From Psammoneis japonica (lineage: Eukaryota), in the NCBI GenBank assembly GCA_008632985.1, contig QPGO01000003.1:186001-250000 (forward strand): a DNA stretch of 64,000 bases. Direction: 5' to 3'. The stretch's first letter is position 1. Every line of letters begins with the position of its first letter. The notes beneath the pieces were generated by a model. The model did no database searches. It saw only the letters and a list, made by a program, of their open reading frames with translations, and was not told where the DNA came from. Both the position numbers and the translations under genes were made by a program. This document shows positions 669 through 48,479 of the stretch, one piece after another.

Positions 669-829
669 TATAGTATTTTTGCAATGGATATACAATGTCT
701 CAACAAGGAGCTCAACGAAGATTCAAAGATGAGTTTGTTAGATCTCAGATACGATCTGACAATAGTTTGGAAGATGTCCAGACTGCGGGACTCATTCAGT
801 CACGTGTGGGCATTGTTCCTCAAAACACC

Positions 830-2290
830 ACACACCACGAGAATCAGAGTGGCTTTTCAGACTGTTGCCAATGCCTTCAACAAAACCAATGCTGTTGTCA
901 TTTGGAATGAACATGCATTGCTTGTTTGATGGTTGGCAATCGGCGAATCGTTGCAGGAGCGCACTGCTTCGTCATGTGTCAAGAAGGAGCAGCCTTGCAT
1001 CTCAAGCAGGGCTTGCTGTTGCAATTGCACCATCTCAAGTGCTGTTGTGCTGAGGCACCTCACACACCTGGCTTGTTGGCCCAGACTCTCTCCTTTCAGC
1101 ACACCTTGTGATGTCACTTTGCGTTGTCATCATGTCTGAGCTCCTCTGCCATGCCGCACATTCTTGCGACCCCAAAAAAGGCACCTGCCATGTGCTTCTT
1201 GCACTCTGGCTGTTGCACATGTGCACCTGGTGGCCAACCTGAGGCAAGCATCCTCTGCACTGTTTTTTTCTTCACAATTGCTGCTGCTGCAAAATCTGAT
1301 GCTGTGGTCCAAAATGAGCATCTGTGCTTTTCTTCATGAACTGCTGGCTGCTGCTGCAGAATCTGATGCTGTGCAACAAGTCAGCCATCAATGAAAATGA
1401 CCACTGCAGCAGCTCTGCAGCTTCCACCTTCTCTGCTTGCCTTGCAAGCTGCAAATCCATCACTTGAATGCAGACTTAAAATGCAATGCCACCAGCATGC
1501 TGCAATTTTTGTTTCTTCCTTTGGTGCCCCTCTCTTCCTCCAATGCCTCATTGGTGCTGGTGCTGTCCACAGGCTTCCTGGAACAAGCACTTGATTGCAC
1601 AGGGTTCTTGCACTCCCATTTGGTGTAAGGCATGCTGTCAGATGCCTGTTTGCCCCAAAAACAAAGTGCTTGCAGAGCTCTTGGCAAGTTGCTTGTGTGT
1701 TTGCTGACCACCTCTGCTCATTTTTCCACCACCTTTTCCAAGTGCTCCATTGCTGTTTTTTTTTGTTGATGTTTCCCTCAGGCTTCCACATGTGTTTGCC
1801 CATCTCCAAAAGAATTCGGAACACTGTGTTAGAACTCTTGTCACTGGCTGTGTCTTTTGCAAGAGATGCTGATCTTTGTGGAGGTCTTCCCACAGGTTTG
1901 CAGATGTGTTGTTGCACCTGGGTGTTGCCTCCACCTCACTTGCATCTTGTTTGTCTGTGCTGGCCTTGTTGCTCTGTCTGCCCCACTGTTTGTGTCTTGG
2001 TGATGGTTTTTCTTGTTCGTTTGGATTGCATGCCCTCTTTTTCGAATTTTCATGCTGCTCTCCTGTTGCTCCCATTTTCCCAGAGAGAGCTGTGAACTTG
2101 CACACATTTGTTGCTCTGACGGGGAGACATTGAGCTGACACACTGGCTTGGCAGGGCTGTCGAAGGATGTTGGCTGGGAACAAGGAACTCATGTGTGTCG
2201 ACTGTCGACGGCGTGATTGTTGGCAGCAAGAAAACAGGCATGACCAGACAGAATGCATGGAATTGGTGCATCTCATCACATGTTGTTGCT
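830..2290. other. TpA-depleted degenerate sequence, origin unrecognised
   Basis: Only a few TA dinucleotides (e.g. about 1477, 1626, 1830) in about 1.45 kb; TG/CA-rich; many overlapping Cys/His-rich spurious ORFs. Confidence 0.75.
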
Positions 2291-2579
2291 GTCAACAGGC
2301 TAGCGCTTCTGTTGCATTGGTGATTGGAGCTGCTGAAGAATCTTCAGTCATCAGTCATGATGCTTCTCGAGAACAGCGTTTGTTGGTAGATTCGGATTTT
2401 TGCTGTGCTCCTTATCTGCGGTTTTGTATATTCTTAAATGTTCCGTATCTTTTTTGTGCAATGATCGCGAACGCGAGCGAATCTTTTTCTCTTTGCTGCT
2501 TATTCTCATCATCATTCATCATACTATTCACCTACTACCTACTCTCTTATTTCTGATTCATACACAGAACAACAACACC

Positions 2580-9597: not shown

Positions 9598-10017
9598 GGG
9601 CGATTTAAAAAAATAGTTCCGTCAAATGAAGAGTAGAGATGAAGAACAGCGGATCTCTGTGTATCGCATCAAGAAAAAGGAGGAGGGCAAATATGAAAAA
9701 ATTGTGACTATCGAAATCTCAGAAGTGAGAAAATGTCCCATTTAGAATGACTTGAGCAGTGCCGGCCGAAAGAGCATCAGGCAGGTAGGCAGGGGCAATA
9801 ATTTGAAACTGTGACTCCTTTTTTCTATTATTTGTATCCGTGAGAGTCATCAACCACAGACACTTTGGACATCGAGAGGGTTACTGTAAATCCATTAACT
9901 GGTCGCTAACGACGGACCAAATTGCTCACATCATTGTGTGGCATGCTCTCACAGTTGTTTGATCAAATCTAGAAAAGCTTTGCCCATGCAGGCATTGAAA
10001 TGGGATCTCATTGACTC

Positions 10018-12896
10018 ATGAATCCATCTCGCATCCAACGACATCAACTCCTTTTTGTCGCCGTGTTCTCGGCGTCAGTGTTGTGGGCCAAAGGCACAAA
10101 TCCCTGTGTCGACGAGTGCGGGACAAAAGAGCGCTTCTGTGGAGAGACATCGTCAGAGTGCACCTTTGCTGTCAACTTGGGTGGTGACAGCTGCAATGAC
10201 TTTTGTGGGCGACATGGGGGGCGATGCATCACCACCAAAGCTGCTGGAAGTTCCAGTTGCAACACAAAGGGCGCGAACTCTTGTTCTCATGGCTGCAAAA
10301 ACAACGCGTGTGTGTGCTCACTTCAAGACGTCACCAAGGGAGGCAACCAGCCTCCGAAAGAAGAAGAGGCCAAAGTGACTGCTCTAACACCCTGTGTCAA
10401 ACAGTGTGGTGAAGAAAGTTCACTGTGCGAAGAAACGTCGCAGCAACGTTCCTTTTGTGTTGTTTTGAAAAAAAGGAGTTGTGGTGACTTTTGCGAACAG
10501 CATGGCGGCACTTGCTTGGAAGCGCGGGTGGCATCGGAAGCTTCCTGCACAGCACGTGAAACCAACTCTGAGATGACTTTTGCGTTTGCACAAGAAACGA
10601 AGCGCATGCACCATCTCCCACCCCTGGTCCTGCACCACTTCCTGCGCCCTCTCCCACGCCGCAGTCACCTCCAGATCCGACTGGGCCACCTGCTCAGCTT
10701 CCGACATTTCAGCCAACAGAAAAATCAATGGATTGTGTCGACGTTCCACAAGGTTGGCATGACCCTGATGGCGAGATCTGCAATTGTGCTTGGCACAGTT
10801 TGGATGACAACTGCAAAGAATGAGGAGATTTCTTTGAAAATTTTGGAGCCACGGCGAGTGCAGCCTGCTGTGGATGCGGTGGAGGGAACCTTCTGTCAGT
10901 CGATGGGATTGCACAAACGCCATCCCCGACGCCACGGCCTTCGCCACTGCCGACAAGCAGCCCTGCCCTCTCTCCCACTGCAGCTGCACCAACAGCCAAG
11001 CCGACCGACTGCCCTGCCATGGAATCAACAGCCAAGCCGACGAAAGGACCAACACGGGTTCCAACGAAGGCGCCCTCATCCAATCCGACTGAATTCCCAA
11101 CCCTGGAGCCATCAGCCAAGCCGACGCGAGGTCCAACACGAGTTCCGACATTGCCTCCCACGAGTTCAACTGTTTCACCGACACCAGTGCCAACGCTTGC
11201 TTTGACAACGCGTCCAACCTCGACCCCTACGAAGGGTCCGACTTTGACGCCATCAAATCCTCCTACTGCTCAAACACATGATCCGACGGTGCGTCCGACT
11301 TTAGCCCCAACTCTTTTGCCAACCGCAACGCAAACAACCAATCCTACAGTGAATCCCACACAGTCCCCTTTAGCATCAGCAACATCATCTCCGACCCAGA
11401 GATTGACGCCAGTTCCGAGTAGGAGACCAACAGCCTTCTCATCAAACAATGACCCTCCCCGCGCTTATACGGCGTATCCCACTCTTGCGCCAACAAATGC
11501 ACCCACGATCCTGATACCAATGGACGCCGGTGACGACGATATAAAAGGACAGGGTTCTTCAGAACCAGGATCCTTGAGTGTTGGTAGGGCGTGCTCGAAA
11601 AGTAATCAATGCAAGTCATCGACTTGTCGAAGTGGCGTTTGTATGGCGTCGCCGGCTTGCTATCCAATCAAACACACGTTTGGGAATCCATTCCACAAGA
11701 ATAAGATCAACATTGTGTTTGTTCCATCCGCATTCGCTTCATTTGGTCATGATGCTTGGCATGATCACGTCAATAAGACATATGGATTCATGCAAAACTA
11801 CAACATGTTTGCAGAAGATATCGACGAGCTCAACGTTTTTAGGGTGGATCCTTTGAATCTCGATGAGTCATTTTGTGCATTGGGATGTCAGGGATTCGAC
11901 CGACTCTTGTGCTGCGACGTAAAACGTACCCATGCGTTGGCCAGCAAGTGCTTCCCTGTCGGACCTAATCTTCAAACTGCTGTCATTCATAGCTCAAGGC
12001 AATATGGTGGTGCAGGATACACTAACGCAAACATTGCTACGGCGACAATGCATCCTGCCGCCCCTCTCGTATTAGTACATGAGCTTGGTCACTCGCTCTT
12101 TGAGTTGACCGATGAGTACTCGTACGGAGAAGGAAGTGCCTTTGAGGCAAATTGTGATTCTAGCAGATCTTGCGAGAAATGGTCAGACCTCATGGAGGAA
12201 AATTACAGACCGAAAGGTTACGAAAGAGTGAAATGCATTCCAGGATGTGAGGATGGGTACTACTTTGTTGGAGGCAAGACATTCATGAATGACTTGAGCG
12301 CTCCCGTTGGAGCGGTCAATGAACGGTTTAGTTGCTGTACATACTTGGCGTTGACGAAAAAGTTCCCTTCCTACTGTGATGTTTTTGATCCGTCCCCAAA
12401 CTATCTCTTGAACTATTGCAAGAAGGATTACCAAAACTATGGTGCCTCAAGCTACGAAAGTGAAGAGGTCCTTGCCATACCGGGGTACACAAACAATGAC
12501 AAGGCCGACGCTAAATACATGAGAGTGGTAGATCCAGCAATGGTGACAATTACATCCACAACAAAGCGCTCGGGGGTCACGGTATTCCGAACAAAAACAT
12601 CTCAATTAGAAACTGGAATCTTTCCTACGTCTCAGGTCAAAGGCGACTTTGTTAATCCAAGAGCCGCAATGAAACAAGGAGTAGATTCCTTGTTGAAAGT
12701 CTTGGTCTTTTATACAAGAGGAAAAGACACGCTGTTTGTTTCAAGAAAAATAACCATTGAAATACCCCCGCCTCCTCCCAACAGCACAACATTACAAGGA
12801 GTCCCTCACAGTGTTTCCGATGAACCCAATGTTTTCGAGTTGGTCTTGGACACCAAAGGACGGGCTGTAAAGAAGATTCGTGTCAAGGCAATCTGA
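10018..12896 (+). pseudogene. M64 metallopeptidase copy A: signal peptide, two Cys-rich modules, CxDxPxGWHD module, PT linker and intact M64 domain (ORF 11019-12896); 5' part TpA-mutated with a nonsense codon
   Basis: YGGAGY and HELGHSLFELTDEY motifs; TGA at 10821 where paralog B has TAC; frameshift near 10560. Confidence 0.8.
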
Positions 12897-14685: not shown

Positions 14686-14921
14686 GGTGCTAGTAGTAGT
14701 TGTTTGTTTGTTTCGAGTGTAGTAGAACGTTTAGAAGACGAACAACAATGTGTACAACAGCACCAACAAACAAAGAGCCTCTTGGTGCTGACGCTGTGAA
14801 CTGAGATTTTCGATCTTTTTCCACCTGCTTCCGACAACGTACATTTCTACGTGCTTCTGGTAGTCGTTCCAAACGTGTGGTGGATTGATTCTTCTCTGTT
14901 TGACTCGAACGGGCGACCGAC

Positions 14922-15010
14922 CGACAGTCAGACAGACAGACAGTCAGACAGACAGTCAGACAGACAGTCAGACAGACAGTCAGTCAGACAGTCAGACAGA
15001 CAGTCAGACA
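14922..15010. repeat. Minisatellite (CAGTCAGACAGA)n / CAGA-based
   Basis: About 7 tandem 12-bp units visible, at the left edge of the large TpA-depleted domain. Confidence 0.9.
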
Positions 15011-16191
15011 CGCACACCGACCTGCCATGCATTGCATGTGCGTGTTCTTCACATCATGACAACACACAAAAAAGGGGTGAGCCGCAGCAGAGGCCCTCTG
15101 ATGCTGTGCAGGTTGTTTGTCTCCAAACAAGAAGCAAAAGTGCCCAAACACCTCCTCCTCCTCCTTCTCTTCTTTTGTTGCCAGAGACTCTGCTTTTTGC
15201 GTTGCTCTGTGGTGGTGTGGCCAACTCTCCCGCTTTTGTTTTGCAAAAGAGCATGCACAGCCACACTTGTTTTGCAACAAGATTTTTTTTGCTGGACACA
15301 TGTTGTTTTTGGCAGGTGACTTGGTTTTTTTTCAGACACTGCCCCAAACTTTGAGTGCTGCTGGCGCTGCCACACACTGGTGCTTGGCTCTCTCTCTCTG
15401 CACAGCAGGTTCTCTTGCCTTCTTCTTGCACACCACCACACACACACACAGGGCAGCCCAAAACATGATCAAATTGACAATGCAGCAAGAAGCAACAACG
15501 TCAACAAGAAAATGTTCAGCACACATCACACGCAGCAGCAGGTGGCAGCAAAGCGGCGCTTTTCTGAGATGGTGTGCGTGAATTTCACAATTGAGCATGT
15601 GCACATGGGGTGATGTTTGCACAACAAATGTTGTGTCCAAGCAGTGCACAAATGTGAAATGACAACATTGGCACTGTCATGTGTGTGATGGGATTTTGGT
15701 TTGAGGTGGGGAGCAATGCACCAGACTTGGTCAATCATGGGGGGGGGGCTGTGTGTCAAAAAGAGCTGGTGTGTTGCAAGTTTGTGAGCCAAATTGTCAA
15801 AATGCTGTGTCACGAACAAGCCCCAAACACACACTGTGTTTGTGTGCCATCATGTGAGATGTCCCATGTCTGACTGGATGTTTGTGTCCCCAATCATGTT
15901 GGCCAGCTGCACAACTGGCATGCAAGAAGACTGCGCTCAAAACTGAGTTGCAGCATGATGATGCAAAGATGTGCACACAGCTGAAATCCCATCAACACCC
16001 ATTTTGTTGGAAGGAGCCACACCCCACACTGGACTTGGCAAAGAAAGTGATGGAAGATCAAGAAAGTTAAAGGAGACACACACTGGAGAGCGCCAGACAT
16101 GATGGGATGAAAGGGTGGCACAGCACTTGCACACAAGCCAAGAGGTGGCACAGTGCTTGCACAATCCACAATGCAGGGCAGCAGCAGCAGC

Positions 16192-16225
<34 letters not shown>

Positions 16226-17700
16226 CCAACCACAATGCCAAACACACAGAGCTTGTGAGGCAACAAACTGAGAACCGCAACAAGCAGTGGTCTTGGCAGC
16301 AACTTGCTTCTTTTGGAGAACAGGCCAACATGGCCAATCAGAAACTTGTTGAGGAACAGAGTGCAGAGTTCTTGCTCATCAGCTCCACCTCCAGATCCGA
16401 CTCACAGCTCCAGTGGGGATTTCAAAGCCACAATGCTTGTGGCAAGAAGGCACCACCACAGTGCAAAGGAGCCCAGCTTGGCTGTGATCTCCCTGCTGCT
16501 CTCCTGCTCAAGCATGATGCTGCAGCTTGAACATTTAAAACTTGGATGGCAAAACTTCACAATGGACCTTTGTGCAATGTGGTGCAATGCAAAAAGCTTC
16601 TTGGGTGTGATCCTGATCTTCCCATCTGACAAATTGGGCAAATTGTCCTGGCCAGATTTGACAATGGGTGAAGGTGACTCTCCACAAGTTGTCATCCTGC
16701 ATGGGAACCTTTTCACAACAGCAAGAACAGCAACAGGACCAGAGCACTTGGGAGCCAAAGCAATGTTGTGAGTTGCTGGAAACAAATTGATGTCACACCG
16801 CTGTTGCTCCCCAGGCAACAAAGGTCATGGAGAGTGACAGCTGCTGATTGACAAGGAGCATCATGGTCAACTTTGTGGGGCAGAGCCATTGAATGATCAC
16901 ATGGATGGGTGTGTTTCAATGGCCACATCTCTTCCACCACAAACCTCGTCACATGAACAAACCCTTGGTGCTTCCCCCCCCCCCCCCTTGTGTGTGAGAA
17001 ATCAGTTTCTGCTGTTCATTTTGTCCAAAAATTTGTGCTGAGTCTTTTTACGCAGACTTGGCAAAAATTGCACATCAGCATGTGATGCACAGATTTGTGC
17101 CAATTCACTCAGATCATGTTTTTCACAAAGGAGAGTGATTGAAAAATTCCTTGGGTGTGAAATGGGAGGCAAGCACTGAGGGTTTTGTTTGGGTGACAGG
17201 GTTTGTGGCAGAGACATGAGATCATTGAAAAACATCCATCCACTCAACAATTGCTCAAAGGCTCTGCTCCAGAAAATTGACTGTGAGATCCCTCGTGGAA
17301 ACTGGCAGTGCAGGGCATGCAGGGTTCAAAGACAATGGCCCCAACAGACAGGGAACAAGGTGTTTCCCAGATGTTGTGCTTGTCAGGTGGAGAGTTGAAA
17401 GAACACCAATGTCCAGCTGCAAGACAAGGGCCCAAAGTGTGGGACATGTTCATGCTGTGGGAGTCACAAGCCTGGACACTTGCAACATTGCTGTCAAAAA
17501 ACATGTCACCATCTGCATTGGAAGGTGCAAGGTTGGCACAGGGATGAGCCTGCATTGGAGCACGGGCAGTGCAGCTGGCAGCAGAATGGGCGGGACTTTT
17601 GGGGTGGCAGCAGAGAGCAACCAGTGCAGCACAGGAATGACAAAACCCAATGTCTGTGTTTTAAGTGCTGCTGCGCTTCCACCCTGCAACTCCGGCAACA
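15010..17700. other. TpA- and CpG-depleted degenerate sequence, probably an old transposon or gene relic; includes (CAG)n at about 16178-16222
   Basis: Almost no TA, very TG/CA-rich, no recognisable protein motif. Confidence 0.6.
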
Positions 17701-17749
17701 AGCTAACCCACACTCCCAGCACACAATGTGCGGCAGGAGCGCACAACAA

Positions 17750-20700
17750 TTGGCCATCATCGGCATCGCCGAAAGGCGATGCCAACCCGAAGCAGCTGGC
17801 AACAGAGCATGTGCCTCGCACGGCAAGCCGTTTGGCTTCCCGCAGACTAGACTTGAACATGGGCTTTGCCACAGCCAACCAATTTTGCATCCGATGGGTG
17901 GAATGGGTCAAATGCTCTTCAACTGAATCAAGGAGTTGGAGCTTGTCTCTTGCTGAGCACTCATCTGCCCTGGAACACATTTCTCTGACTTCAGCCTCCA
18001 CGTCACGGCGTTGAGCAGATCTCTTTGTTTCAGAATCGTGTCCATGCACGGCATCATTGTGCATGTCCCACAATTCCCACCACTGTGACCAGATGTAACT
18101 GCCAACAGTCGCCGCCCAATCAAGACGTTTCTCCCTGTCGGATGAAGCATGACACACACCTGCAGCTGGCAGGTGCGACCGCTGGGCCACATTCCATGAA
18201 GCAGAAAACCTGCCACTGAAAACGTGTCACCATCCAATCCTTTCTTGGGACCGAAAAGTTGCATGTGTGCTGCAATGAAATTCCTCAATGTGTGGCATTT
18301 CCTCACAAAACCACCCTTCTAGAGAACCCAGGAGCATGTCCCGCAAAGCCGGGGAGGCACTTGTGTCATCGCATTTCTTTCGAAGATCTTGAAGAAATTT
18401 GCGTCTCCATGCCTCATTGTGAGGGCAACAAAGGATGTGATTGCGGTCCTCCATCGGATGTTGACAATGGATGCAACAGTTGGGACGAGCAGGGTTGCAC
18501 CTCTGCACAATTTTGTTTGTTGGAAGGAGATCCTGGACTGGTTTGATGGTGCTCACCTTGCGCCGGATGTTCCTCGACATTAGTTTCGAATGCACTTGCC
18601 AATCGATCGACTGACGCGCAATGTCGGACCACCCATGCTTCTCTTTCACATGTTGTGTGAGAGCTGGACTGGATGCCTCATGCCGAAGGACAGTCTTGAA
18701 GTTTGAAGTCAAGGCACCCGCTGGAATGTTGAGCAATGCGGAGCAATTGGGCACACGGGGCACAATGGAAGTGTCACCATCGTGCTGGCCTTGGAATCCG
18801 GCAGCTAGCGTGTCTGCTCGAACGTTCAATTTAGCAGGGAGAGACAAGTGTTGATGCGGAATGGTGTCGTCTTGGTGCCCTTTCACCCAGGAAAGCATCG
18901 CTGGTGTGCCCTGCACACCTTCACTCTGCACACCTTGCAACTGTTGCAAAGAAATAAAAATTTCGTGAATGACATCCCAATCAGGAGCCAGGGCATTGGA
19001 AACATGGTGCCTCAGGCGAAAGTCCTGTTCACGGTGAGTCTCGTCCGCATCGTCGGGGTGTGGGGGCAGTGCCTCGAAGTTCTGAATGTTGCAGACCAAG
19101 GAAGAGTTGTCGCAGCGACACTCTGTCCCAAGTGGAAAGGTCCGATTGCAAAATGTCACAACACAAAGAAGGAACCGCACCACTGAAAGGCAACCACAAG
19201 CCTCTGTGCGATGTGAGGAAGGACGAAATCCAAAGACTGGGCCTGCACAATCCACCAGAAAAACTCCCCGGACAGATGACGTCCAGAAAAAGGCGCCATT
19301 GTGCTGCACCACCGAGCCATCACTGCCGACCATTGCACGAGAGTTGGCCAATGTTTCCGCCAGTTCAAACACTGACACGTGCAGCATCAAGTCTTGAAAC
19401 AGGGCCGATTCCCGTTTGGGCAAAGAACGGACCCAAGCAACAAATTCACCCGGGACAGGGAGACTCGGAGGAATTGACACTTTAGAGAATGATGATTGAA
19501 GACGCCACTTTCCATTGTCGGTGGTGTCAACCAAAACGGGAGATGCCAAAGGCGACAAGTCTGGAACAGTCTCCAGGTGCCTCAAAGATTCCGCGCATCC
19601 GTCTCGGACGGGGTGTGCATTGCATCCAATGTCAGACCGGATGTACAAAAACTGTTCGCTCGGTTCAAAGCAAGCCGGGAATTGTGCGCGCATGTCGGCA
19701 GTGGCAACAATCCGTTGTCCCAATGGATGTTTCAGTGAAGAAGTGTCATCCTTGCAAAACAAGGCACACGCTCGATGCCACTGCTTCCAAGCTCTGGGAG
19801 ATGGAGACGGCTGTTCCACTGGGTCACTCAATGAAAAACTGCTGAGGAGGGAGCAATCACCTGCCAATTCAAACTCATCAATGGACAGACCGTCTGGAAG
19901 AGCAATGTCAGAAACCGTGAGCACGTTGAGATGCAATCAACAGCAGTTGATCCAGCGGATCTCTTTGTTGGAGAATTCGCCAGACTCAAGCACAACATCC
20001 ATGATGTGCTGATCGTTGTCCCGCTGAAGGGGTGACACACCCGCATCGTCCAAGTCGAGAGAGGCATTGATCCAAACCAGAAAAGATTGCAGAGACATGA
20101 ACCATTTAGATTCAGAATGAGGCAGTTTGGAATGAACATCCACTAAAAAGCTGATGCCAGTGCCCAATTGAAGCTGTGTCCAAGCCACCGTAATGCATGA
20201 TAAAACATGAGGTTGACCCCTGCCGTGCCAGTGCCGAGTGAACTGTGTGCATTGGGGTGTGCCTTGTTCCACATCTAACGACCGAAAACCGCCTCCACCA
20301 AGAGCACACGGACCAAACAGCACGTCTCGTTTTGTGTTTCGGTTGTGCCCACACTTCGCAAAAATTGTCTGCATCGCTTTCCACTGAACCTCCAACAACT
20401 CCTTTGGCAAGAAGTGAGTGTTCGGGAGATCACAAGACATGGACGACAAGTGGCAGGCGAAGCAATGCGTCCAAGCTTCGTGCCTGTCAAGAGGACACGC
20501 TCTAAGGAACAAGGCAATGTCATTGCTCTTCCTCTTTGATGCCAAGTGTTGTGTTTTCTGAGTGCCAGCGGGAGACTTGCAATGCCCTGAGGTCTTGTGA
20601 GATGAGCAAGCTGAAAGCTGGGTGCTAGACCTCTTGGCAGTGCGGTCGGCGGAGAAAATTTCAATGTCAATTTTGTCGTTAAAGGGGCGCAAGTGAGGTT

Positions 20701-23700
20701 CGCCATCCTCCATGAAAATCCATTCAATGGCATGAAATGAGCATTTGGGAAGCTCAAGTTCGTGGCCAGCAGCATTGAGAAGGTCACACCACATTTGGTT
20801 GTCTTCCTGCATTTTTGGAACCAGGTCCATGGCGGACGGCTGAGGGGAGGCACAAAAGTCATTGACTTGCTTCGAGGTGTCGTCCACGCATCCTCTGATG
20901 AACAGTTTGAGGGACTGTTGTCGGTCAGGAGATTCGAAACAGGTGCTGTGAGCTTTCTCATTGAATGGCCAGAACAGACTGTTGCACATTTGATTCCAGT
21001 AGAATGGGGAATTGCCACTGCCCTGTCCCGTGCCACAGATCGAGAACTCAGAAGAGTGAGAGCATGAGGTTGCAGACAGGCCGAGAACCGTTTTTGGCCA
21101 ATGCCAGGCGCCCTCCAAGGTGGCGTCAGCGGACTGTGTGATCTGCTTGGGCATGCTGTCACTTCTGCTCTCCAGTGCCGCTAAAGCAGGGACATTTCTG
21201 TCATGACAAGAAGTGCAGTCATCATCACTGTGGATGGCAGTCTTCCTCGACACTCTGCTGATTTCCAGCATTAATTCCTCGAGGTAAACGGGAGTGTTGG
21301 CGTTTAAGAATGGTCTTGTGCCACAAACTCCTGGATTGCACAGATGCTGATGCTCCATGTTCTGAGCAAGGGACCGCCATTTCACAGGTGAATTTTGGTG
21401 TTGCCAGGTTCTTTGAAGATCACAATGTTGGCGATGTCTTTCCAACGATCATGCGAGTGCCCCCAGCGCAGGGCGTAATTGAGCAAGTTCAAACGGGTTT
21501 GAGTCAAGGTGCGTTGGACTTTGTCCAATGAAGCACATTCCGGAGCAGGTTCACCATCAGCAGTTTGGGAATGAGAGTGAGCGTGGGAAGCATGCATTGC
21601 TTTCCAATGGCCCAGATGAAGGCCTGAGAAAAGCGACGTCGATGCAGACTCTTTCCACGGCTTGATCTTGCCTTCCAAATCCTGAGCCATTAAAAACTGT
21701 GACACAGACACTGGAGAACGGCATTGCAAATGAGTGACAAACCGAGACGCAGCTTCATTGAGCACAGACGTGTCATGCTCTCCATCCAGAATAAGATCCG
21801 CCACAACAGTGTCCCCTGAATGACCTAAGTCCACAGACAGAGGGGGAACAGTGGGAGGCGTCCCATCAGCTTGCCCAAAATGTTTCTGATTCCGTGTGCG
21901 CAGTGCCGAAGCTGCTTCATCCGGAGCATCAACAGTGATCCAATCCATGCATTCCTTTGGAGGGATCGCCAGATTCAGTGGAACTTGAACACTGTTGATC
22001 CCAGTGTCACGTTCAGCTCCGCATGACTTGATCTTTTGGAACAGTTGGCGGTCTCTGCTGCCTTGCGAAGGTTGCGTAGAACAGTTGCCTTTTTACGAGA
22101 AGCTGCAGCACCCTCCATTTCTAGCCGAGCAATCTTGTCAGCAATTTCATTGTCTTGATGCTTGATGCTCTCAGCCGCGACCTGTTGACACTCATTCTGC
22201 GCTTGTCGCAAAGCTTGTTGGCACTCTTCAAAGGCAGATGGGATCATGAATTTGCCACTCAGGCTGGCGCGGACATTTTGAATCTGAGCCGTGTGATCAA
22301 TGCGGGTGCACATCACAGACAACACATGGGACAAGATGCACACTCAACAACGTAAATCCGCCAACTGAGTCAACCACTCCGGTTCTCGGTGAAGGCGACA
22401 CTTCTTCGCTGCTGCTAAAGAAAACTGCAACAGATCCCTGTCCAGCCTTTCTGCCAATTCATGATCAGGAGTGATGGACTCCAGGAGTGAAGCGGACCTC
22501 TCCAAAACGTTCCGACTCTCTAGCATGGGATCGATGGTTTGCAGGCAGGTGGTGACTTGAGGTTTCAAAGACACTTGCAGGTCTCGAAAGGCTGCCTTCG
22601 GAAGATCAACGGTCGGGTTGCCAAACAAAGTGATGGCATCAAAGTCCACGAAGTGAGCACGATGATCCGAAGCAATGCAGTGTCCAAATGCTTCATGGCC
22701 ACCAAATCGTGCAGCGGCCAAAGCACCAGGGGTGGCTAAAACGAAATCCAAGGGTTTTGACCCCCTTGTGCAAGTAGAAAATGCCGTGTCTCCTGTGAGA
22801 GAAAACATTGCATCGGAGAGATTGAACCGTTGGGCCAAAGCAGACAGAGAGTCGGTGTCAATGACGAAGTCCGTGTTAAAGTTCCCAAACAAAATAACCT
22901 CACGGTTGGAATCTGCAAGAAACTCTTGCAACAAACGAGATGGATCGGTGCAGAATGCTTTGCAAGGGTCAAGGTGTTGTTGGCCCTGCTGACGCAAAAG
23001 GTGAAGCTGCTGAGTGCATGCTGTTGTTTTCCCAGGCCGTGTTTGATTTTTGGCACACACTCTGCAGCAGGAAATGAACATGACTTGTCTGCCATTTCTG
23101 CCATCAAATGTCTGGATGGACCAACGGCCCAACAGATCAGCCTCCTGAGAACAGCAGCGAGCAGACACCGCATTGCATGACAGCAAAGCCGTGCCACCAG
23201 GCTCACATTGTGTAGAGAAAGGAGTTGAGCTGCAGGAAAAGGTGCCTCTGCCGTGATGAAGGGAGTTTGTCACCGTGGAACGGCAAACTGATAAAACCGA
23301 ACATTGGGTGGTGTCCAAACAAACCTCTGACATGCCCACAATGTCAGCCTGCATCTCGTTCGTGATCTGACAGTGTGCAGCGAAGTCTCCTTTACATTTG
23401 TCAAACTTGCTGCCATTTGCATTGAAGGTGCACAGTCTGGTGTGATGTGACAGCTCAGGCCCCACAGAGTCGCCAACGGAAACGTTTGTCTTCAGGCGGG
23501 AGAAATCAATGCGTCGTCCGGCAGAGGATTGAAACCGCCTGCCATCCAAGAGTGTCTGCCATGTGGAAGACATGTCTGTTGAAATGGTGCTGCTCATGGT
23601 TGGGCCACGCTCCTCTGAAGAGAAGACTGGGGCTTGCAGCACTGCCAGCAGGTTGAACCGAAGAATGAGGGCACAGAGAAGACTGGGGCTTGTCGCAATG

Positions 23701-25740
23701 CAACGGGTGTGAGGCAGCATGAAAGGAGAACTTGCGATGTTGAGATGTGCGTCAAAAAACGTGTGCCAAAGTGTGGGACTCTTGAAGTCGTGAGGCAACA
23801 TCAGGAGGATGCCCAATCTTTTGAGGGGGTGGAGGCGGCGAAGTCCAACCCCGCGCTAAAAATCCTTCTCCTTGTCTTGATGGTCGCCAGGCCTTTCTGG
23901 TGTTTCGTTGTTGTTGGGACGTTTCCGTGCGACACTCTGTGTGGGTTGGCTTGCCTGTGACAGTTGGACAATCTGATTCATCTGTGACTGCATGCCAGAC
24001 AGTTGTTGCGAGCAGTGGTCCCGTGTGGCCATCATGTCATTCGTGTGCTGAGTGGTGAAAGTGTCATTCAATGCTTCCATGTGCCGAGAATGTTGTGCAC
24101 GTAACTCAGTGAGGGCTTTGTCATGTTTCTCTTGCATTTGGTTCATTGTCTGTTGCACTTCTGCCAACTGTGCTGCAGTGATTGACGAGCCAGCGGTCGA
24201 CTGTGTTGCCTGTGCATGAGAGTGCTGGGAAGACGTCAAGCTTTGACATCCGGGAATGCCATGGGAAGGTGGGGAGAACTGGGAATGCTGAGTGAAAATG
24301 TGAGGAGGCACCGCCAAGCCTTGAGTCGTCCCTCGTCCAGGGTGACCTTGTCCTTCATGACCACGTCCGGCAAGTGGTTTCGAAGCAGGTTGTGTCAAAC
24401 TGGGAGCCTGATTGTCAGTCAGCGGAGAAACGTCCGAAAATGTGAGAGATTCGAGACTGCGAATGCCAGCCAAAACGACAGATTTACTTGTGTCAGACAA
24501 TTCTTCGAAAACACCTGACACTTGAGGAGGTTCCAAAAACAGGGGAGATGGGCAAGATTCTTTCGAAACAGAAGGGATCAGATTCACAACGCACGTGGAA
24601 ATGGCTGCTCGGATGGTGTCAAAGTTCCGACGGTCCACTAGAATGTTGTGTCATCCATCAACAATCGTTGATTTGAAAATGTCCTTCACTCCAGTCAGCG
24701 CTTTAAGGTGATGTTCAAAACAAAACATCATGTCCGGGGCAGTGTTCAACAGTGGCACCACAAAGGCATCTTCATTGTGACGAGCTTGCATCTTGACGGC
24801 ATTGTAAAATGCAAGAGGGGAGACATGACGAGTTTTTGCCATCACGACATGAGTCGGGAGTTTGTTCGAAGCACAGAGCAAAGCCTTGCCCGCAGTGCGA
24901 CATTCTTCGCGCAAGACTTCAACGGCAAAAGTCGCTGTCCGAAGCGGGGTGGCAAGTCCATCATTGTCGGCACGGATCAAAGCAGGTGCCAACCGAAATT
25001 GCGGCATTTTAGTGCGGAAGCCTCCGAGATCACTGATGAATGATTTGGCAGCTTCGTCGACTGGAGTGTGTTTGGTGGATGCAGCAACATGACATGCCGG
25101 AGCAGCCGTGTCAATGTCGGACTCGTTCCAGAAATGACGTTTCACACCCATGTTGTTGGAATCCAAAACACTCTGGACATGTGGATGGGAACGAATTTCG
25201 TGCAGTGGAGTCTCAGTGAGAATGCGGTGACATGGGCAATGAGTTGCCGGGCGTTTCTCGCCACTGTGATTCGTTGTGACAACAAAGTGTTGTTTGTGTT
25301 GGAGGGAAGCAATCCATTCTGCCACGTTGACATTCGTAATGCAGTTGTTGTGGTTGTCAAGAATCTGAGCATCCTTGCAGCAAGTGAACAGAATTTGCTG
25401 TAAGACTTGCAAATGGGCAGCAACAAGAGTCATGGGCTTGCACGACAATTCTTTGCCACGAATTTCAAAACGGAGGGTGATCTCTTCGAACTGACACTCA
25501 GTTGGCTCAGAAGAAAGCTTGATGGAAGACTGGTCAACAGCAACATCATCTGCCACAATGGCATCTTTGTTGCGAGCAGGGGTGTGGCTGCCGTCAGCGA
25601 CGGAAGAAGACGCCGTGGTGGTTGGCTGTTCTGCGGGGAACCTGGTGTTAAAATTGCGTGGGTAATGTCAATGCGAGTGTGCGCAGAATTGTGGTGCAGC
25701 ACAGGAAAGAGATGCTGCCACACACAACCCAGGTGAAGAC
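17750..25740 (-). mobile_element. Degenerate non-LTR retrotransposon (LINE; APE-RT-RNase H-zinc knuckle, Ambal-like)
   Basis: ORF1 about 25556-23856. ORF2 in one frame broken by TGA stops: APE (RLCTFNANG, DIVGMSE, VILFGNFN, LDFVLAT, ASDHRAHFVDF), RT (GTGQGSGNSP, GCVDDT, LELPKC), RNase H (VGSDGSV, SSHRTEACG, CDNSSLV, WVKGHQD, LNVRADTLA), CIHC...EDRNHILCCP. Ends are approximate. Confidence 0.9.
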
Positions 25741-26472
25741 GACCATCTTGAAACTTCTCATGAGTGAACATTGCAGCCTTTGGGAGCATGAAAGCTGATG
25801 AAAGCCACCAGAAGCAGACCCTTGCAAGCACGAGGCAGAGTTGCAAGGGCGCCATTGCTGCTGTCATGCCAGAGGGCATCAGCGGTGCTGGGAGCAAAGG
25901 ATTGCTGCCAATCATGACACCCAATGGCACCATCAATCAGTGGTCAAAGCAGAGTGGGGAAGACCATCAGCAGGTCAATCCAACGCAGCACCACCAATCA
26001 CATGCTTGAAGCTGCCAGGAGGGGGAAGGTGGAACTTTCTTGGCAGGGTCAAGAAGGAAGAAGCTTGGGCTTGAGTTTTGCAAACTGTGGCATGCTCTCA
26101 CATTGGCATTTCTGGCTTTTGCACTTGGTGCACCGCCATTTGGTTTGGCAACAGGTGCTGCATTTGGAGCATCGTGCACTGAATGTGACAAGGAATGCCC
26201 AGGTGCACACCACATCCAACATTTGTCCAGCGGCTGAGCTGCAAAGAACTCAAAGCTGCAGCACACAAACACATGTCCTGGCATGACTTTTCCTTCCCAG
26301 CTGTGTCAATGAAAAACCTTCCAACCATTCAAGAAGAGGTCAAGAAGGCATTGCAGCAGCACGCCATGTGCAAAAGAAGGGCAGCAAATTGTTGCATGCC
26401 GCACACAGGGCCCTGCCGGAGCTGCAGGCTGTTTCTTGCCGAAGATGAAAAAAATGTGCGCAGCCCTGCACA

Positions 26473-27458
26473 GTGCAATGTAATGGATGCACAAACATGA
26501 GGGACACCCCTCCCCTTTCGACGGATGCCGTCGTAAGAACTGTCGGTGGGTGTCTCAACCAACGCTTCCAAACGAGAGAGTTCATCATTGTGGGATCCCA
26601 TCCAGCTGCCGTGCAATGCTTCCAAACTGATCAGACCAATCTCCTCTACAATGACATTGACGTGCATTTCGAGAAACCTGGCACTGCACAGGAAACTCGA
26701 AACTCCAATCAACTCTGTGACTGTGAAGCTGCCTCTTTGAACTCGTCGGTGGTGCCAGCTGACCCCTGGGTTAACCACATTCTGAACACGAGCATTGAAC
26801 ACTTCCAGACAAATGACAGGCCCACAGAAGTGAACTTCATTGAGCTCAGAAGTGGTTGCCTGGACCTTGAGAGGTTGATTGGCGGATTTGACTGCAGTGC
26901 AGTTCAGGTTGGATTTTTGGCTGAGCCATCTTGAACGCAACCAACGCGATCGTCCGCTGGCATGCTCATTCAGAGTTTGAGCAATTTCGGTTGACTCGTG
27001 GAGATTCAAAGATCCTCAAGATCTCAAATGTTGCCCATCCCGGTGCAAGCCCTGCCTCGGCTTTTATTCGCCTGATGCACAAAGCCGAAACATTGGGATT
27101 GCGCCATCAGCTCCCGGAAGAAAAGCTGTTGTTGAGAACGGTTGACGGCCACTTTTTTGGTGAAAAGAACAAAAGGAAATTGAAAAACCTTCACCCTCAC
27201 TTAAAGAGGGAGATTCTCTCCCGTTTCCAAGTGCAGCGAGTCCTGCTCTACGGCAAAACAATGCCCGGTTTGATCAGAAAGGATGACCAACAGCCCATCA
27301 AATTTGCTCAACAAGTGTCTGCTTTCAGCGCTCTGCTCACATCAAACCGTCCTCGCCAAGCTTCTTTTACCTCTGCTTTGCCCACATTGGGTCATCCTCA
27401 TGACTCTCCCCGCCACCAAGCAAATGAGCAGAACCCATGCCTGCGCTTCTGTTGCTGA
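26473..27458 (+). pseudogene. Degenerate ORF with a nucleotidyltransferase-like motif
   Basis: IIVGSHPAA...LLYNDIDVHF and later FDCSAVQVGF resemble the hG[GS]...DhD pol-beta-type motif; interrupted at about 26932. Confidence 0.4.
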
Positions 27459-27574
27459 TGAAACCTTCACTGTGAACATCTCTCCACCCATCCGTTTGCT
27501 CTGTCAGCAAGTTGCACAGCCCGGGCACAGCATTTGCAGCATTCCACCCCAAGAGTGCAATCACTGTTTGTAGC

Positions 27575-27887
27575 ACGATGGCACGTTCTCAGCCATCAAC
27601 ATCGCAAGTGTTCGACATTCCACGGCAAGGCACCCAGACACCCACAGCCAGTGGTGCGTCAACATGGTTTCAAGAGAACGTGAAATCTTGTCTGACATGG
27701 TTGCCGGCATGGCAGTTGTTGTTTGTTTTCTTCGAGCAGAACAATTGAGCAGACTGACAACAACATAAACAGCAACAACAACAACAACAGAGCGAGCCTC
27801 TTTTTTGGTGCTGATGCACTGTGTGACCTGTGTGAGATAGATTCGATCTTTTTCCACCTGCTTCCGACAGCTTGCATTTCCATGCTG
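27575..27887 (-). pseudogene. Truncated, mutated duplicate of the prohibitin 5' end and upstream region
   Basis: MSDKISRSLETM vs MSDKILRSLGTM; ttcgatctttttccacctgcttccgaca is shared with 14809-14836. Confidence 0.9.
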
Positions 27888-27891
27888 AAAG

Positions 27892-28049
27892 TGTTTTGAC
27901 AGAGCAAATCAGTGACAAAACATGATCTGTTCAAATTGTGAGACGAGCCTCAAGTGGATCTCGGTCTTCTGCCAATGTCCTCAGAAAATGTCAAAGACAT
28001 CCGAGAACCAAGCCAACATTGTCTGTCAAGCAACGGACAGACTAAAACA
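27892..28049 (-). repeat. 3' LTR of the Copia element, preceded by a polypurine tract (28050-28057)
   Basis: TGTTTT...AAAACA termini; minus strand reads GAGGGGAA|TGTTTTAG; aligns with 33982-34172. Confidence 0.85.
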
Positions 28050-30127
28050 TTCCCCTCAATCTAGCTGGCTGGACTTGGTCACATCGACAAGCTAGATTGC
28101 TGACAAAGGAAATCATCAACATCATGTGACAGCAAATTTCAAACAAACATCCAAATGGGAAACTCCAGGCAAAACCCACGTCATTGGCACGGAACTCCAA
28201 ATGAAACCCTCTGCGTTGGCACTTTGTTCAGCCGACCATGGCCTGCTCCACCTTCCCACCAAGACAGTGCAGAATCATTCCCACCAACCAACATGCACAG
28301 TTTGCCACTCATCATGTGCTGCACCCTTTGAACAAAGTGGTGCCACACCAAGCTGTGACATTTCTTCTTCAACATTGAGAAGGGGACAGAGTGGCTGTTT
28401 GCCAGGACGACAGACTGGTTGTTCCCTGTGACAAATGCCAGCCCAATGACCGGAATCCCCATCACCCGGAGCTCATGCCAAAGCCCACAAATGCACTCCG
28501 TGCATTGCTTCATGCTGGCAAACTGTTGGACCCAAACAAGCTTGTCTCAATGCTCATCTGCTTCTTGGACATCCAGCACACAGGAGAAGAGTTGAGATGC
28601 ACTGCAAGGAATCCAGCACACGAATGGCAAGTGATTGAGTCACCTGCATGGTCTGCATCCATGAAAGCTCACAAAATCACAATGAGACCTCTGGCTTCAG
28701 GCATGTTGGCAGTCATCTTCTCCCACATGGCAAGGCCAAACTTGGAGGTTGTCCAGTCCTGTCGTGCAAACAGTGCTTCATCAATGACAGGGTCACTGGG
28801 GTCAAACACCATCTCCATGTTGTGGCACTTCTTGAGGTGTGCAAAGATGCAGTGCACCTGTTCAAGGTGTCCCTCTCATGGCAGCACCAAGTGCAAGGAC
28901 ATCGTCAACACTTCAAGACAGATGCCAACACACCCAAGCTCAACTGTCCAATGCAGGACACCATTGAGCAATTGACAGTGGGCTGCATCTGCTGGTGACA
29001 GCTCCACACTCGCATCAAGTTCAGGATGGCATGAGCTGCTGAAGGGAGTTGGGGCCTTGGCTGGCAGCTTCTTGCCCCTTGATGCCAATCAGGTCTCCAC
29101 ATTCTTGACCACCGCCTGGGTGTGCTGAGAAGAGCTGAAAGCCCATGCCTTGACTCCATTCTCAAGCTCTGCTTTTCACAAGTGACCACCCAGGTGCAAG
29201 CCAGGAGGGCCAATCAAGGCCTCCTTCAGTGGGAAGTTCTCACCAATCTCACTCCACAGAATCTTCTCAGCATTGTTTGAGATGCACAGCACATTGTCCG
29301 TGCACAGAAGAACATGCTCCCAGCACTCAGTGCCATCCTCCTCTCAAGGGCCACACACATCCACACATCAGGGTCAGCCTCACAAGGCTCAAACCCAAGG
29401 TGTGAGACACACACATGCAGGTGATTCTGGAAGTCACACCCAGCCAACTTGCCTCCATGCAAAGCCACCTTTTTGCAAGTGGAGAATGTGGTTTTGATGC
29501 AATGGTGATGCAATGTTCACGTCGTGAATTTTTTGTGTGATGTGGTGTCACTGAATTTTGCATTTGCACACAAATGCTGCCAACAGCAACAGAAAAAATC
29601 CTGAACGATGGGAGTTTTTACTTGATGACACAGGCACACATTTGCAAGAACATGATGAATGTGCCCAACTCAATGCATGTGATGATGTCATCACACATCA
29701 CCCACACCCACATCCCATGGGACCACTTGCGAAGGGGTGATGCTGAACAAATGCTGACATGCTGTCACGAACAGGCAATTTATGTGCTGTTGGTGATTGG
29801 TCCACTGTCGCTTGTTCAGTGGTCCCAGTGGCGTGACATCTCACAATTCTAGAACCTGTTGATGCTGCTCAACACTCTGTCTTGTCTTGCGCCCAATTCT
29901 TGGCTGTCATGGTGGCATTTGTTCAATGCAAAGCATGGTGAATGAGAGCATGCTTGCCCACATTCTCAAGTCCAAATTCAGGGCCACAAATGACACAGTG
30001 CTTCTGAGATGATGGAGCCTGCAAGTGTGCATTCTGGATGTTGGCCGTCATTGCATTGATGTCATTCAGGGCAGCATGCATCAATGTGGTTCTGACACTC
30101 TCCCTGGATGCAACCCCAGCGTGCATT

Positions 30128-33981: not shown

Positions 33982-34172
33982 TGTTTTGATGGAGCAAATC
34001 AAAAACAAAATGTGATCCATTCAAATTGTGAGATGATCCTCAAGTGAATCTCTCGGTCTTCTGCCAATGTCCTCAGAACGTCAAAGACATCTTACAGAGT
34101 CTTGCTTTCTGAGAACCAAACCAACAAGTGTGCCAGTCACTTTGTCTGTCAAGCAACAGTCAGACTGAAATG
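33982..34172 (-). repeat. 5' LTR of the Copia element
   Basis: tgttttga...tcaaattgtgaga...cctcaagtg...tcggtcttctgccaatgtcctcagaa...tgtctgtcaagcaac...cagact shared with the 3' LTR; TGG (PBS-like) a few bases inside on the minus strand. Confidence 0.85.
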
Positions 34173-48468: not shown

Positions 48469-48479
48469 TTAAATGCGAA

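Follow-up and report, generated by a model that had tools for sequence, protein, structure and literature searches.

In the window, as the whole 64,000-nucleotide stretch of DNA analysed here from the diatom Psammoneis japonica is called, the dinucleotide TpA has nearly vanished from long, sharply bounded domains and has been replaced by TpG and CpA. Taken as a whole, the observations would best be explained by a TpA mutator that acts in situ on silent DNA, is delimited by chromatin and is most likely a deaminase; the probability of this reading is put at about 0.6. A regional mutational process specific to TpA is very likely real. The identity of the agent is more tentative, and the odds that it would be an adenine deaminase fall slightly short of even. 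All of the evidence consists of the end state of the process in one assembly.

TA-poor domains account for 31,640 of the 64,000 bases, and within the 64-kb window they form eight sharp-edged segments. Their TA O/E is 0.06, compared to 0.57 elsewhere, with a minimum of 0.01 per 2 kb, and the longest stretches free of TpA reach 1999 bases (Table 1). Bins lying fully inside the main domain (16001-34000) have TA O/E values of 0.01-0.14 and TG/CA values of 1.44-2.0. AA, TT and AT have nearly the same O/E in depleted and normal DNA. With normal DNA's composition as the reference, the domains have lost 989 TA and 1061 CG and have gained 1016 TG and 994 CA; the loss of TA and CG together equals the gain of TG and CA. 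Two pairs of normal and depleted sequence, in addition to the pair of gene copies described below, give the same picture. No TpA was kept among eight when 13568-13668 was compared with its depleted counterpart at 4546-4644 (six are now TG or CA), and none among nine when 14649-14847 was compared with 27662-27880 (five are now TG or CA). Assignment of segment 4371-7140 to the process is uncertain, because part of it is minus-strand coding sequence for a Pro/Thr repeat and is TA-poor by composition, although it contains 4546-4644, where all eight TpA of the normal counterpart are missing.

Table 1. Features of the window that bear on the loss of TpA
Feature	Position	Strand	Remarks
TA-poor domain ending just upstream of pyruvate kinase ORF	741..2410	.	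7 TpA, TA O/E 0.07, CG 0.25
TA-poor segment	4371..7140	.	15 TpA; assignment to process uncertain
TA-free domain around copy A 5' end	9971..11227	.	one TpA (10385) in 1257 bases
Peptidase M64 paralogue A	10700..12896	+	
5' part of M64 copy A, covering Cys-rich domain and beginning of Pro/Thr linker	10711..11030	+	pair alignment
Main TA-free domain, 20 kb	14862..35042	.	1 to 17 TpA per 2 kb
Degenerate non-LTR retrotransposon	17450..25667	-	order: endonuclease, weak RT, weak zf-RVT
LINE zf-RVT, weak match	18227-19936	-	
LINE RT, weak match	19937-21448	-	
LINE endonuclease	22344-23855	-	
Peptidase M64 paralogue B, comparison copy in normal-TpA DNA	36796..38885	+	
TpA lost from copy A, copy-B positions	36872, 36874, 36889, 36891, 36916, 36954, 37005, 37060, 37089, 37095, 37125		
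TA-poor domain, 4220 bases	47591..51810	.	15 TpA, TA O/E 0.05, CG 0.35, without family match
TA-poor domain between RSN1-type channel gene and M64 copy D	54961..56610	.	6 TpA, TA O/E 0.06, CG 0.23
Cys-rich domain of intact paralogue D, polarity outgroup	57626..57785	+	within ORF 56762-59218

A mobile element, a degenerate LINE, can be identified in one of the domains, and another takes in a host gene copy's 5' end. A Pfam search of 36 ORFs of TA-poor DNA, at E up to 1, returned only weak RT and zf-RVT matches, both in the LINE, and at E up to 0.01 the remaining ORFs scanned in TA-poor DNA matched no Pfam family. The domains that do not contain the LINE may be foreign or silent DNA. DNA free of TA has TGA as its sole stop codon, and long spurious ORFs therefore appear in all frames. 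Of the window ORFs that were scanned, none matched a deaminase family.

A local record of the loss is preserved in two paralogues of Peptidase M64. Copy A has no counterpart of residues 1-284 of the intact paralogue D, and residues 285-818 of D align with it in one frame. The alignment of copy B with D is broken into three pieces, which lie in frames 1, 2 and 1, so that copy B has two frame changes. An initial sequence-only reading had counted by hand 11 TpA of copy B, all missing from copy A and ten of them converted to TG or CA. Global alignment of copy A 10650-12800 with copy B 36746-38920 by MAFFT, followed by formal substitution counts, gave the same figures: 11 of the 11 securely aligned TpA in copy B 36808-37140 are absent from copy A 10711-11030, where TG stands in place of eight, CA in place of two and TC in place of one. 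A twelfth TpA in the MAFFT alignment (B 37016) adjoins a 17-base gap and was treated as ambiguous, outside the 11. Substitutions are enriched at TA in the formal alignment, as that reading had predicted. In this stretch 12 of 24 sites inside the copy B TpA are changed, compared to 25 of 293 elsewhere (Fisher p = 1.1e-6), and with A/T sites alone the figures are 12 of 24 inside TpA and 8 of 126 outside (Fisher p = 1e-6). A stop codon was also said to have arisen from one of the losses, and TGA is indeed present at 10821-10823 of copy A, in the frame of the Cys-rich domain, opposite a TAC (Tyr) codon of copy B. The loss of 11 of 11 places the rate at no less than 1.4 per TpA, against a background of 0.08 per site, both lineages taken together; by this indirect estimate the TpA rate in the 5' end of copy A would have been raised at least about tenfold. 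Outside TpA, transitions in 10700-11227 are balanced, with A>G at about 5 sites and T>C at about 8, compared to about 10 for C>T and 3 for G>A, as obtained by subtraction of the TpA sites from the full substitution table. GC-biased gene conversion was rejected, since there is no excess of A/T-to-G/C changes outside TpA in 10700-11227.

The loss is not spread over the whole of copy A. From 10386 to 11227 it has no TpA, and the first that is kept is at 11228, which corresponds to B 37342. Over part of this interval, 11030-11227, copy B lacks TA as well, owing to its Pro/Thr coding. The 3' edge of the domain lies between 11015 and 11228, inside one gene copy. Downstream, in copy A 11228-12766, TpA retention is 44 of 67 counted from B and 44 of 64 counted from A, with no enrichment of changes at TpA (p = 0.29). 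This 3' part differs from B at 17.6% of sites, and its TpA loss is symmetric and no faster than that of other dinucleotides. The A/B homology starts at 10700, and the domain has its other end 730 bases upstream of that point. The loss in the 5' end of copy A, as first described, stands, but to regard it as a property of the paralogue pair was too narrow, since copy A is affected only inside a TA-free domain that starts upstream of the duplication. Judged from the alignments, the paralogue appears as a witness of a regional process and not as its target. The most similar block of the pair, 11690-12160, is identical at 457 of 471 positions, and yet 19 and 21 TpA have been kept there. In run X1 the word depth of the TA-free stretches is that of single-copy DNA or less. 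The process is independent of sequence duplication.

The LINE in the main domain is multicopy in run X1. Tyr makes up 0.26% of its 2678 residues, whereas nine normal genes of the window have 3.7% and the range among 61 homologues is 2.9-4.7%. At 47 columns of conserved Tyr, defined as Tyr in at least 60% of 27 homologues, the LINE has Cys at 15, His at 12 and Tyr at only three; its other conserved residues are retained at 510 of 819 positions (p = 5e-15). Fragments 24651-25667 and 23856-24650 aligned implausibly wide, and are included in the 47-column count but not in a 32-column count of sequence context. In the latter, which covers five well-aligned fragments, Cys (15, from A>G on the sense strand) and His (10, from A>G on the antisense strand) make up 25 of the 30 replaced Tyr. 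Both strands are thus affected, and the gains of TG and CA in the domains are likewise about equal. A scan of metagenomes for relatives of this LINE yielded 216 stretches, of which 172 could be confirmed, and 80 loci were retained. None of the 80 was TA-free; TA O/E was 0.48-0.91, and 0.33 in the lowest 1.5-kb window. These values serve as no more than a baseline for the family. Since Tyr is part of both scan patterns, hypermutated copies would be missed, and the scan is silent on other organisms.

Loss of TpA depends on the neighboring bases. In the depleted and normal compartments, which are about equal in size, RTAY occurs 5 and 391 times, YTAY 21 and 345 times, RTAR 34 and 325 times, and YTAR 60 and 201 times, respectively. 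For the classes that report on one strand, the gain is 750 in YTGY and RCAR compared to 267 in YCAY and RTGR, with 460 CpG lost in the same classes. YTAY was converted to YTGY at 5 of 5 sites in copy A, where one of two RTAR sites changed contrary to the TAY rule. In the LINE, Cys is found after Y 11 times and after R four times, and His after R seven times and after Y three times (p = 0.049). The counts suggest that the target base is an A before a pyrimidine, T[A]Y. The opposite T, in R-T-A, is equivalent on sequence alone, because TpA is its own reverse complement and the counts for T[A]Y and R[T]A are indistinguishable.

Motif counts therefore fit a chemistry of thymine equally well, in which a TET/JBP-type oxidase would modify the T of R-T-A in silent chromatin to 5-hydroxymethyl- or 5-formyluracil, and mispairing of the modified base with G would change T to C. 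In dinoflagellates T is exchanged for 5-hydroxymethyluracil preferentially at TpA and TpC, and 5-formyluracil causes T-to-C transitions. However, substitution of 5-hydroxymethyluracil for T is not in itself strongly mutagenic, and we know of no such enzyme or base in diatoms. In the sole published case of this signature, the main text of the preprint proposes adenine deamination (10.64898/2026.01.13.699255). An origin in thymine chemistry is considered unlikely.

The decay of CpG in methylated DNA, by deamination of 5-methylcytosine, gives the same products, TpG and CpA, in the same domains, in which CG O/E is 0.43 compared to 0.97 in normal DNA. It accounts for about half of the gain of TG and CA in the domains, but it cannot remove TpA. 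The two losses had been described as separable, and copy A bears this out: all 11 TpA are lost, whereas CpG is retained at 13 of 18 sites in 10711-11030 and at 28 of 34 in 10700-11227. The LINE has TA O/E values of 0.05-0.14 alongside CG values of 0.58-0.70. CpG decay thus trails TpA loss in these younger parts, and both dinucleotides are depleted in older parts (28-34 kb and 48-52 kb). The occurrence of both changes in the same domains is what would be expected if, in heterochromatin bearing methylation, deaminated 5-methylcytosine provoked long-patch repair synthesis with polymerase-eta-like errors at TA. WA motifs are sites of A-to-G errors by polymerase eta. These motifs include AA, however, and the AA O/E is 1.19 in depleted DNA and 1.17 in normal DNA, so that a polymerase-eta WA signature was rejected. 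The completeness of TpA loss in copy A, with most CpG kept, also argues against error-prone repair, and a TA O/E as close to saturation as 0.01 would be hard to reach as a by-product of it. The probability of such an origin is low.

The edges of the domains lie 130-640 bases from ORFs; those of the main domain are 132 bases from a Band-7 ORF and 177 bases from the next ORF. This closeness makes it hard to part 'domain' from 'non-genic' in one window, and it would also arise if a pressure from TA to TG and CA were genome-wide, with no targeting, and TpA were spared by selection or by transcription-coupled repair. Several observations make this improbable. Short intergenic spacers keep normal or high TpA, for example 34 in 44001-44500 and 25 in 39501-40000. 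The 3' part of copy A has diverged from copy B without faster TpA loss, and copy B itself, despite its two frame changes relative to D, has normal TpA.

The three sequencing runs come from one sample and one study. Run X1, whose library type is not on record, is probably from the same sample as the window assembly and is not fully independent of it. The records likewise name no platform for the assembly or for run X1, and a modification at TpA that makes the basecaller read TA as TG or CA would produce an artefact of the kind seen. Logan k-mer contigs of run X1, however, have 0 differences from the window over 9404-10759 and 25581-28275, at a word depth of 30-100 over the TA-free stretches, and exact matches of this kind require accurate reads. 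A strand-dependent miscall would also give mixed calls, with CG and TA random, whereas CG is depleted, and in this stretch the differences of copy A from copy B include five indels as well as ordinary substitutions. It is very unlikely that the TA-free domains were produced by sequencing.

The polarity of the change, from TA to TG and CA, had been proposed from paralogue D, and it is supported by D as an outgroup, by the derived stop codon and by the Tyr columns of the LINE. Of four informative TpA sites in a three-way alignment, D agrees with B at three, namely at the two conserved Tyr codons and, in the second of these, also at the third base; at the fourth (AATAG in B), A and D have TG. A query of the ESM Atlas with copy D gave no usable match. 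The LINE gives a much stronger indication of polarity than D. Reverse polarity, in which copy A would be ancestral and copy B would have gained TpA by RIP-like C-to-T changes at CpA and TpG, is hardly credible: TA against TG or CA in a pair alone is the exact fungal RIP signature, and one outgroup site agrees with copy A, but the TpA O/E of copy B, about 0.6, is like that of all other normal DNA while the A region has none, the two Tyr codons of B are common to D, the stop is in A, and Tyr in the LINE is replaced by Cys and His relative to 27 homologues.

If a mutator acting in place is accepted, the following sequence of events would explain the window. The domains would be silent intergenic DNA of the nuclear genome and would include a dead LINE, sequence that could not be classified and, from a truncated M64 copy, the 5' end; a mutator working on DNA would turn nearly every TpA in them into TpG or CpA. 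The A of 5'-T-A-Y-3' would be changed to G. RTAY, which could be attacked on both strands, would be lost first, and YTAR, a poor target, would make up the survivors. The mutator would act where the DNA lies, on both strands and with no need for duplication, and would halt within a few hundred bases of active genes, a behavior that fits targeting by chromatin state. TpA conversion would be faster than, and separate from, the decay of CpG to TpG and CpA that is also present in older domains. The enzyme may be an adenine deaminase acting on DNA, converting A to inosine, which is read as G, as proposed for Bigelowiella natans.

In B. natans, TpA-specific hypermutation of integrated giant-virus and virophage DNA has been described (Mettrop et al., bioRxiv 10.64898/2026.01.13.699255). 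According to the main text of this preprint, mutation-accumulation lines acquired de novo A/T to G/C mutations at TpA only, at about 1000 times the background, and TpA-poor clusters rich in CpA and TpG were enriched for RT and DDE domains (10.64898/2026.01.13.699255). As reported there, the two cases are alike in that the changes are almost only A>G and T>C, only at TpA, giving TpG and CpA. In B. natans they are confined to blocks of tens of kb, and single-copy DNA is affected, as it is in the diatom. Clusters that carry the long-term trace hold RT and endonuclease-RT domains, and the diatom domain holds a LINE. The authors of the preprint proposed a defence role and an adenine deaminase, and both may apply to the diatom.

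There are also differences. The host is a chlorarachniophyte (Rhizaria) in one case and a diatom (stramenopile) in the other. The trace in B. natans is weaker by the values the preprint gives, with a Rho TpA of 0.45 in a giant-virus block and a cut-off of 0.43, compared to a mean of 0.06 and local values of 0.01 in the diatom. The reported targets are viral in B. natans, whereas in the diatom a LINE is affected, together with unclassified DNA and a host gene copy at its edge. Mutations in B. natans were observed as they arose; the diatom case is known from its end state. The main text of the preprint has no mention of trinucleotide or flanking context, or of diatoms, and, compared with that text, only the diatom shows the asymmetry at TAY and sharp borders on the side of genes. 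No report of TpA loss in diatoms was found in the literature searched.

RIP, the repeat-induced point mutation of Neurospora and other fungi, likewise consists of regional, dinucleotide-specific transitions that ruin mobile elements and leave a dinucleotide skew, and RIP can leak into genes next to its targets. RIP makes TpA from CpA and TpG by C-to-T changes, whereas the diatom process removes TpA by A-to-G changes. RIP needs duplicated sequence; in the diatom a near-identical A/B block was spared and single-copy DNA was affected. ADAR editing fixed by reverse transcription is also A-to-G, with a preference for a 5' U/T, as noted in the B. natans preprint (10.64898/2026.01.13.699255). Editing of LINE RNA would leave changes on the retroelement's sense strand alone. 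It was rejected because both strands are hit about equally and the domains reach beyond the LINE into DNA that is not a retroelement and into a host gene.

If the diatom process is real, it would add to the TpA-directed A-to-G mutators a second case, phylogenetically distant from the first; the type was described only in 2026 (10.64898/2026.01.13.699255). The diatom case would be far more advanced, with whole 2-kb stretches that hold one TpA or none. The asymmetric target, A followed by a pyrimidine, points to an enzyme that acts on one strand at a time, the borders near active genes point to targeting by chromatin, and the independence from duplication sets the process apart from RIP. In genomes of this kind a TA O/E below about 0.1 together with a TG/CA above 1.5 would serve as a simple marker of dead DNA. 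Diatoms are transformable, and mutation-accumulation and methylome resources exist for them, so that a direct search for the gene behind the process would be feasible. For work on base editing, too, a DNA adenine deaminase found in nature would be of interest. With some hesitation, it may be suggested that diatoms have a natural, chromatin-guided, TAY-specific DNA adenine editor that erases TpA almost to saturation from silent and mobile DNA, and since the same signature occurs in a rhizarian alga, the editor may be old or widespread in the SAR supergroup. If that is true, genome defence by A-to-G change would be the mirror of fungal RIP and a natural counterpart of the adenine base editors made in the laboratory.

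The sequence-only reading had compared peptidase M64 copy A (10711-11030) with its paralogue copy B (36808-37140) and counted by hand that every aligned TpA of copy B is lost in copy A. Global alignment of the two copies bore this count out: all 11 securely aligned TpA are gone from 10711-11030, having become TG at eight sites, CA at two and TC at one; a twelfth adjoins a 17-base gap and, being ambiguous, was kept apart. Changes in this segment affect 12 of 24 sites inside TpA, compared to 25 of 293 elsewhere (p = 1.1e-6), and CpG is mostly kept in copy A (13 of 18 sites), as had also been claimed. With TpA sites subtracted from the substitution table, transitions from A/T to G/C and from G/C to A/T are balanced, which excludes a general GC drive. 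From 11228 on, copy A keeps 44 of 67 TpA, and the two copies have lost TpA alike (p = 0.29); the switch from TpA-erased to TpA-keeping DNA lies within copy A, between 11015 and 11228.

Mapping of TpA positions along the window revealed a TA-free domain with a single TpA (9971-11227), whose 3′ edge is formed by the 5′ end of copy A and whose start precedes the duplicated segment by 730 bases. The A/B pair is a fortunate internal control of a domain-wide process, not its object. Eight TA-poor segments, this domain among them, make up 31,640 of the 64,000 bases. The observed/expected ratio (O/E) of TA is 0.06 inside them compared to 0.57 outside, that of CG 0.43 compared to 0.97, and those of TG and CA 1.73 and 1.71 compared to 1.21 and 1.22; AA, TT and AT hardly change. 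With the normal half's composition as reference, TA and CG in the domains fall short by 989 and 1061, and TG and CA are in excess by 1016 and 994; two transition processes that both yield TG/CA explain this skew entirely. The largest domain (14862-35042) contains TpA-less stretches of 1999 and 1881 bases. Its most TA-free, CpG-poor part holds a tandem 413-base unit in three copies of 98% identity (30131-31357), without any TpA. The ORFs of apparently intact genes lie 130-640 bases from domain edges.

Intron-poor, eukaryotic and nuclear, the DNA of the window has a G+C content of 49%. The pyruvate kinase ORF at 2361-4076 (571 residues) has its best matches in the diatoms Synedropsis, Helicotheca and Ditylum (66-72% identity), and shares 61% identity with a protein of Thalassiosira; on these matches the organism is placed among the diatoms and not in Bigelowiella. 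Pfam identifies five M64 paralogues, as well as a subtilase, a Band-7 protein, a SET-domain protein and an RSN1-type channel.

Principal features of the window and the matches on which they rest
Feature	Coordinates	Strand	Basis
M64 copy A	10700-12896	+	Pfam
M64 copy B	36796-39027	+	Pfam
M64 copy E	44567-46039	-	Pfam
M64 copy D	56762-59218	+	Pfam; sole M64 copy with one full-length ORF
M64 copy C	62590 to end of window	+	Pfam
Degenerate non-LTR retrotransposon (LINE)	17450-25667	-	Endonuclease match, then weak RT and zf-RVT matches, in the correct order

Copy A is in one frame except for a TGA. When aligned to intact D, copy B (36787-38484) falls into three pieces whose frames are 1, 2 and 1, so that either two frame changes interrupt it or small introns are present; the ORF upstream (36314-36790) is unrelated to the N-terminus of D. 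The M64 catalytic-domain parts of A (11690-12160) and B (37806-38276) are identical at 457 of 471 positions, 296 of 300 within 11770-12069, between flanks of 60-90% identity, a pattern that suggests recent gene conversion between the copies or strong constraint.

Because TAA and TAG are nearly absent from the TA-poor segments (42 and 21 on the + strand in all frames, with 514 TGA), stop-to-stop ORFs of 100-570 residues occur in every frame, and an ORF in such DNA, for example 10015-11205, is no evidence for a gene. Pro/Thr-rich coding sequence with internal repeats occurs at 4982-5844 and 6227-7172 (74% identity over 946 columns) and at 57902-58242 (83-86% over 125-222 bases); these repeats are TA-poor by composition, and should be called hypermutated only on other evidence.

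Surviving TpA are not random in context. Between depleted and normal compartments of about equal size, the counts are 5 and 391 for RTAY, 21 and 345 for YTAY, 34 and 325 for RTAR, and 60 and 201 for YTAR, the distribution expected of attacks that each involve a single strand and depend on three bases of context. These survivors fit either an A followed by a pyrimidine or an A two bases after a purine; the products discriminate. Among single-strand classes, YTGY and RCAR gained 750 compared to 267 for YCAY and RTGR, with 460 CpG lost in the same classes; if CpG decay is split evenly over the product classes, about nine tenths of TpA conversions were of an A followed by a pyrimidine. All five YTAY sites of copy A are now YTGY; its two RTAR sites gave one RCAR and one RTGR. 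In the LINE, replacement by Cys follows Y 11 times and R four times, and replacement by His follows R seven times and Y three times (p = 0.049). Product gains, copy A sites and LINE contexts thus give T[A]Y as the motif, which is R[T]A on the opposite strand, the sequence leaving the chemically attacked base ambiguous.

That TA is ancestral had been argued from copy D, and D does share the state of B at three of four informative TpA sites, both conserved Tyr codons (Cys-rich domain) included, and that of A at one. The stop noted in copy A was confirmed as TGA opposite TAC in B. Stronger evidence comes from the LINE in the largest domain. Its RT-region ORF (19937-21448) has 61 homologues of 890-2190 residues, most without a name and many without a Pfam domain. 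Tyr makes up 0.26% of the LINE translation, compared to 3.7% in nine normal window genes and 2.9-4.7% in the homologues. At 47 columns with Tyr in at least 60% of 27 homologues, the LINE has Tyr at three, Cys at 15 and His at 12, while 510 of 819 remaining conserved residues are retained (p = 5e-15). A change of TAY to TGY gives Cys, and to CAY, His; therefore the original state was TA, and changes occurred on both strands. Two short pairs of normal and depleted copies kept none of eight and none of nine TpA.

The LINE family as such is not poor in TA, because TA O/E is 0.48-0.91 in 80 of 80 related metagenomic loci, found by a scan whose two patterns include Tyr and leave mutated copies undetectable. 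Members of the family, which is common in environmental contigs, encode an endonuclease, an RT and a zinc-binding tail in one ORF of about 1900-2100 residues. In sequencing run X1, word depth over 17672-25675 is 230-2700 compared to 25-100 over flanking unique DNA, and 1200 contigs match the LINE at 90-100% likeness, indicating many diverged copies in the genome. Among the eight differences listed for the LINE copies, a subset of the total, four are on the CG-TG/CA axis and three on the TA-TG axis.

A genome-wide bias masked by selection is probably not the explanation, since TpA is retained both in short spacers and in copy A's diverged 3′ part. Nor, probably, is sequencing artefact: Logan k-mer contigs of X1, likely the assembly's own sample, reproduce 9404-10759 and 25581-28275 with zero differences. 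X1 depth is lower over unique TA-free DNA (24-62 at 14954-17669 and 25581-28759) than over neighboring genes (86-98); depth taken from contigs is not a reliable gauge, and the block might be present, or identical, in one haplotype only. CpG decay does not explain copy A and the LINE, which have lost TpA yet retain most CpG. A polymerase-eta WA signature would affect AA, which is unaffected, and editing of the LINE transcript does not account for changes on both strands and in non-LINE DNA. RIP acts in the opposite direction, and here no duplication is needed, the most similar A/B part keeps its TpA, and TA-free stretches have single-copy word depth.

Taken together, these results support the interpretation of TpA loss as a process separable from CpG decay. 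A TpA-erasing signature has been reported in one preprint, on Bigelowiella natans, where 231 of 302 nuclear single-nucleotide mutations in mutation-accumulation lines fell in two integrated viral regions, 230 of the 231 being A>G or T>C, all at TpA, with a mild long-term trace (Rho TpA 0.45) (10.64898/2026.01.13.699255). The window's case belongs with this hypermutation, but is from a different supergroup lineage, is near saturation rather than mild, and combines a target resolved to three bases with borders at the gene side. The words "diatom", "trinucleotide" and "flanking" are absent from the preprint's main text (10.64898/2026.01.13.699255), and none of the papers listed in searches of one paper library describes a loss of TpA in diatoms.

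We propose that a DNA mutator acts in place, confined to silent DNA by chromatin state, and that across many generations it would replace T-A-Y by T-G-Y to the point where no preferred sites are left. The loss of 11 of 11 TpA gives a rate of at least 1.4 per TpA, compared to a background, summed over the two lineages, of 0.08 per site, and the mutator is estimated to be at least about tenfold faster. Adenine deamination to inosine would be the likeliest chemistry. TadA/ADAT edits A34 of its tRNA substrates in this setting, with a T on the 5′ side. The 5′ T context is likewise linked to ADAT2 and ADAR in the B. natans preprint (10.64898/2026.01.13.699255). The enzyme, its link to chromatin and a role of the TpA mutator in defence are putative.
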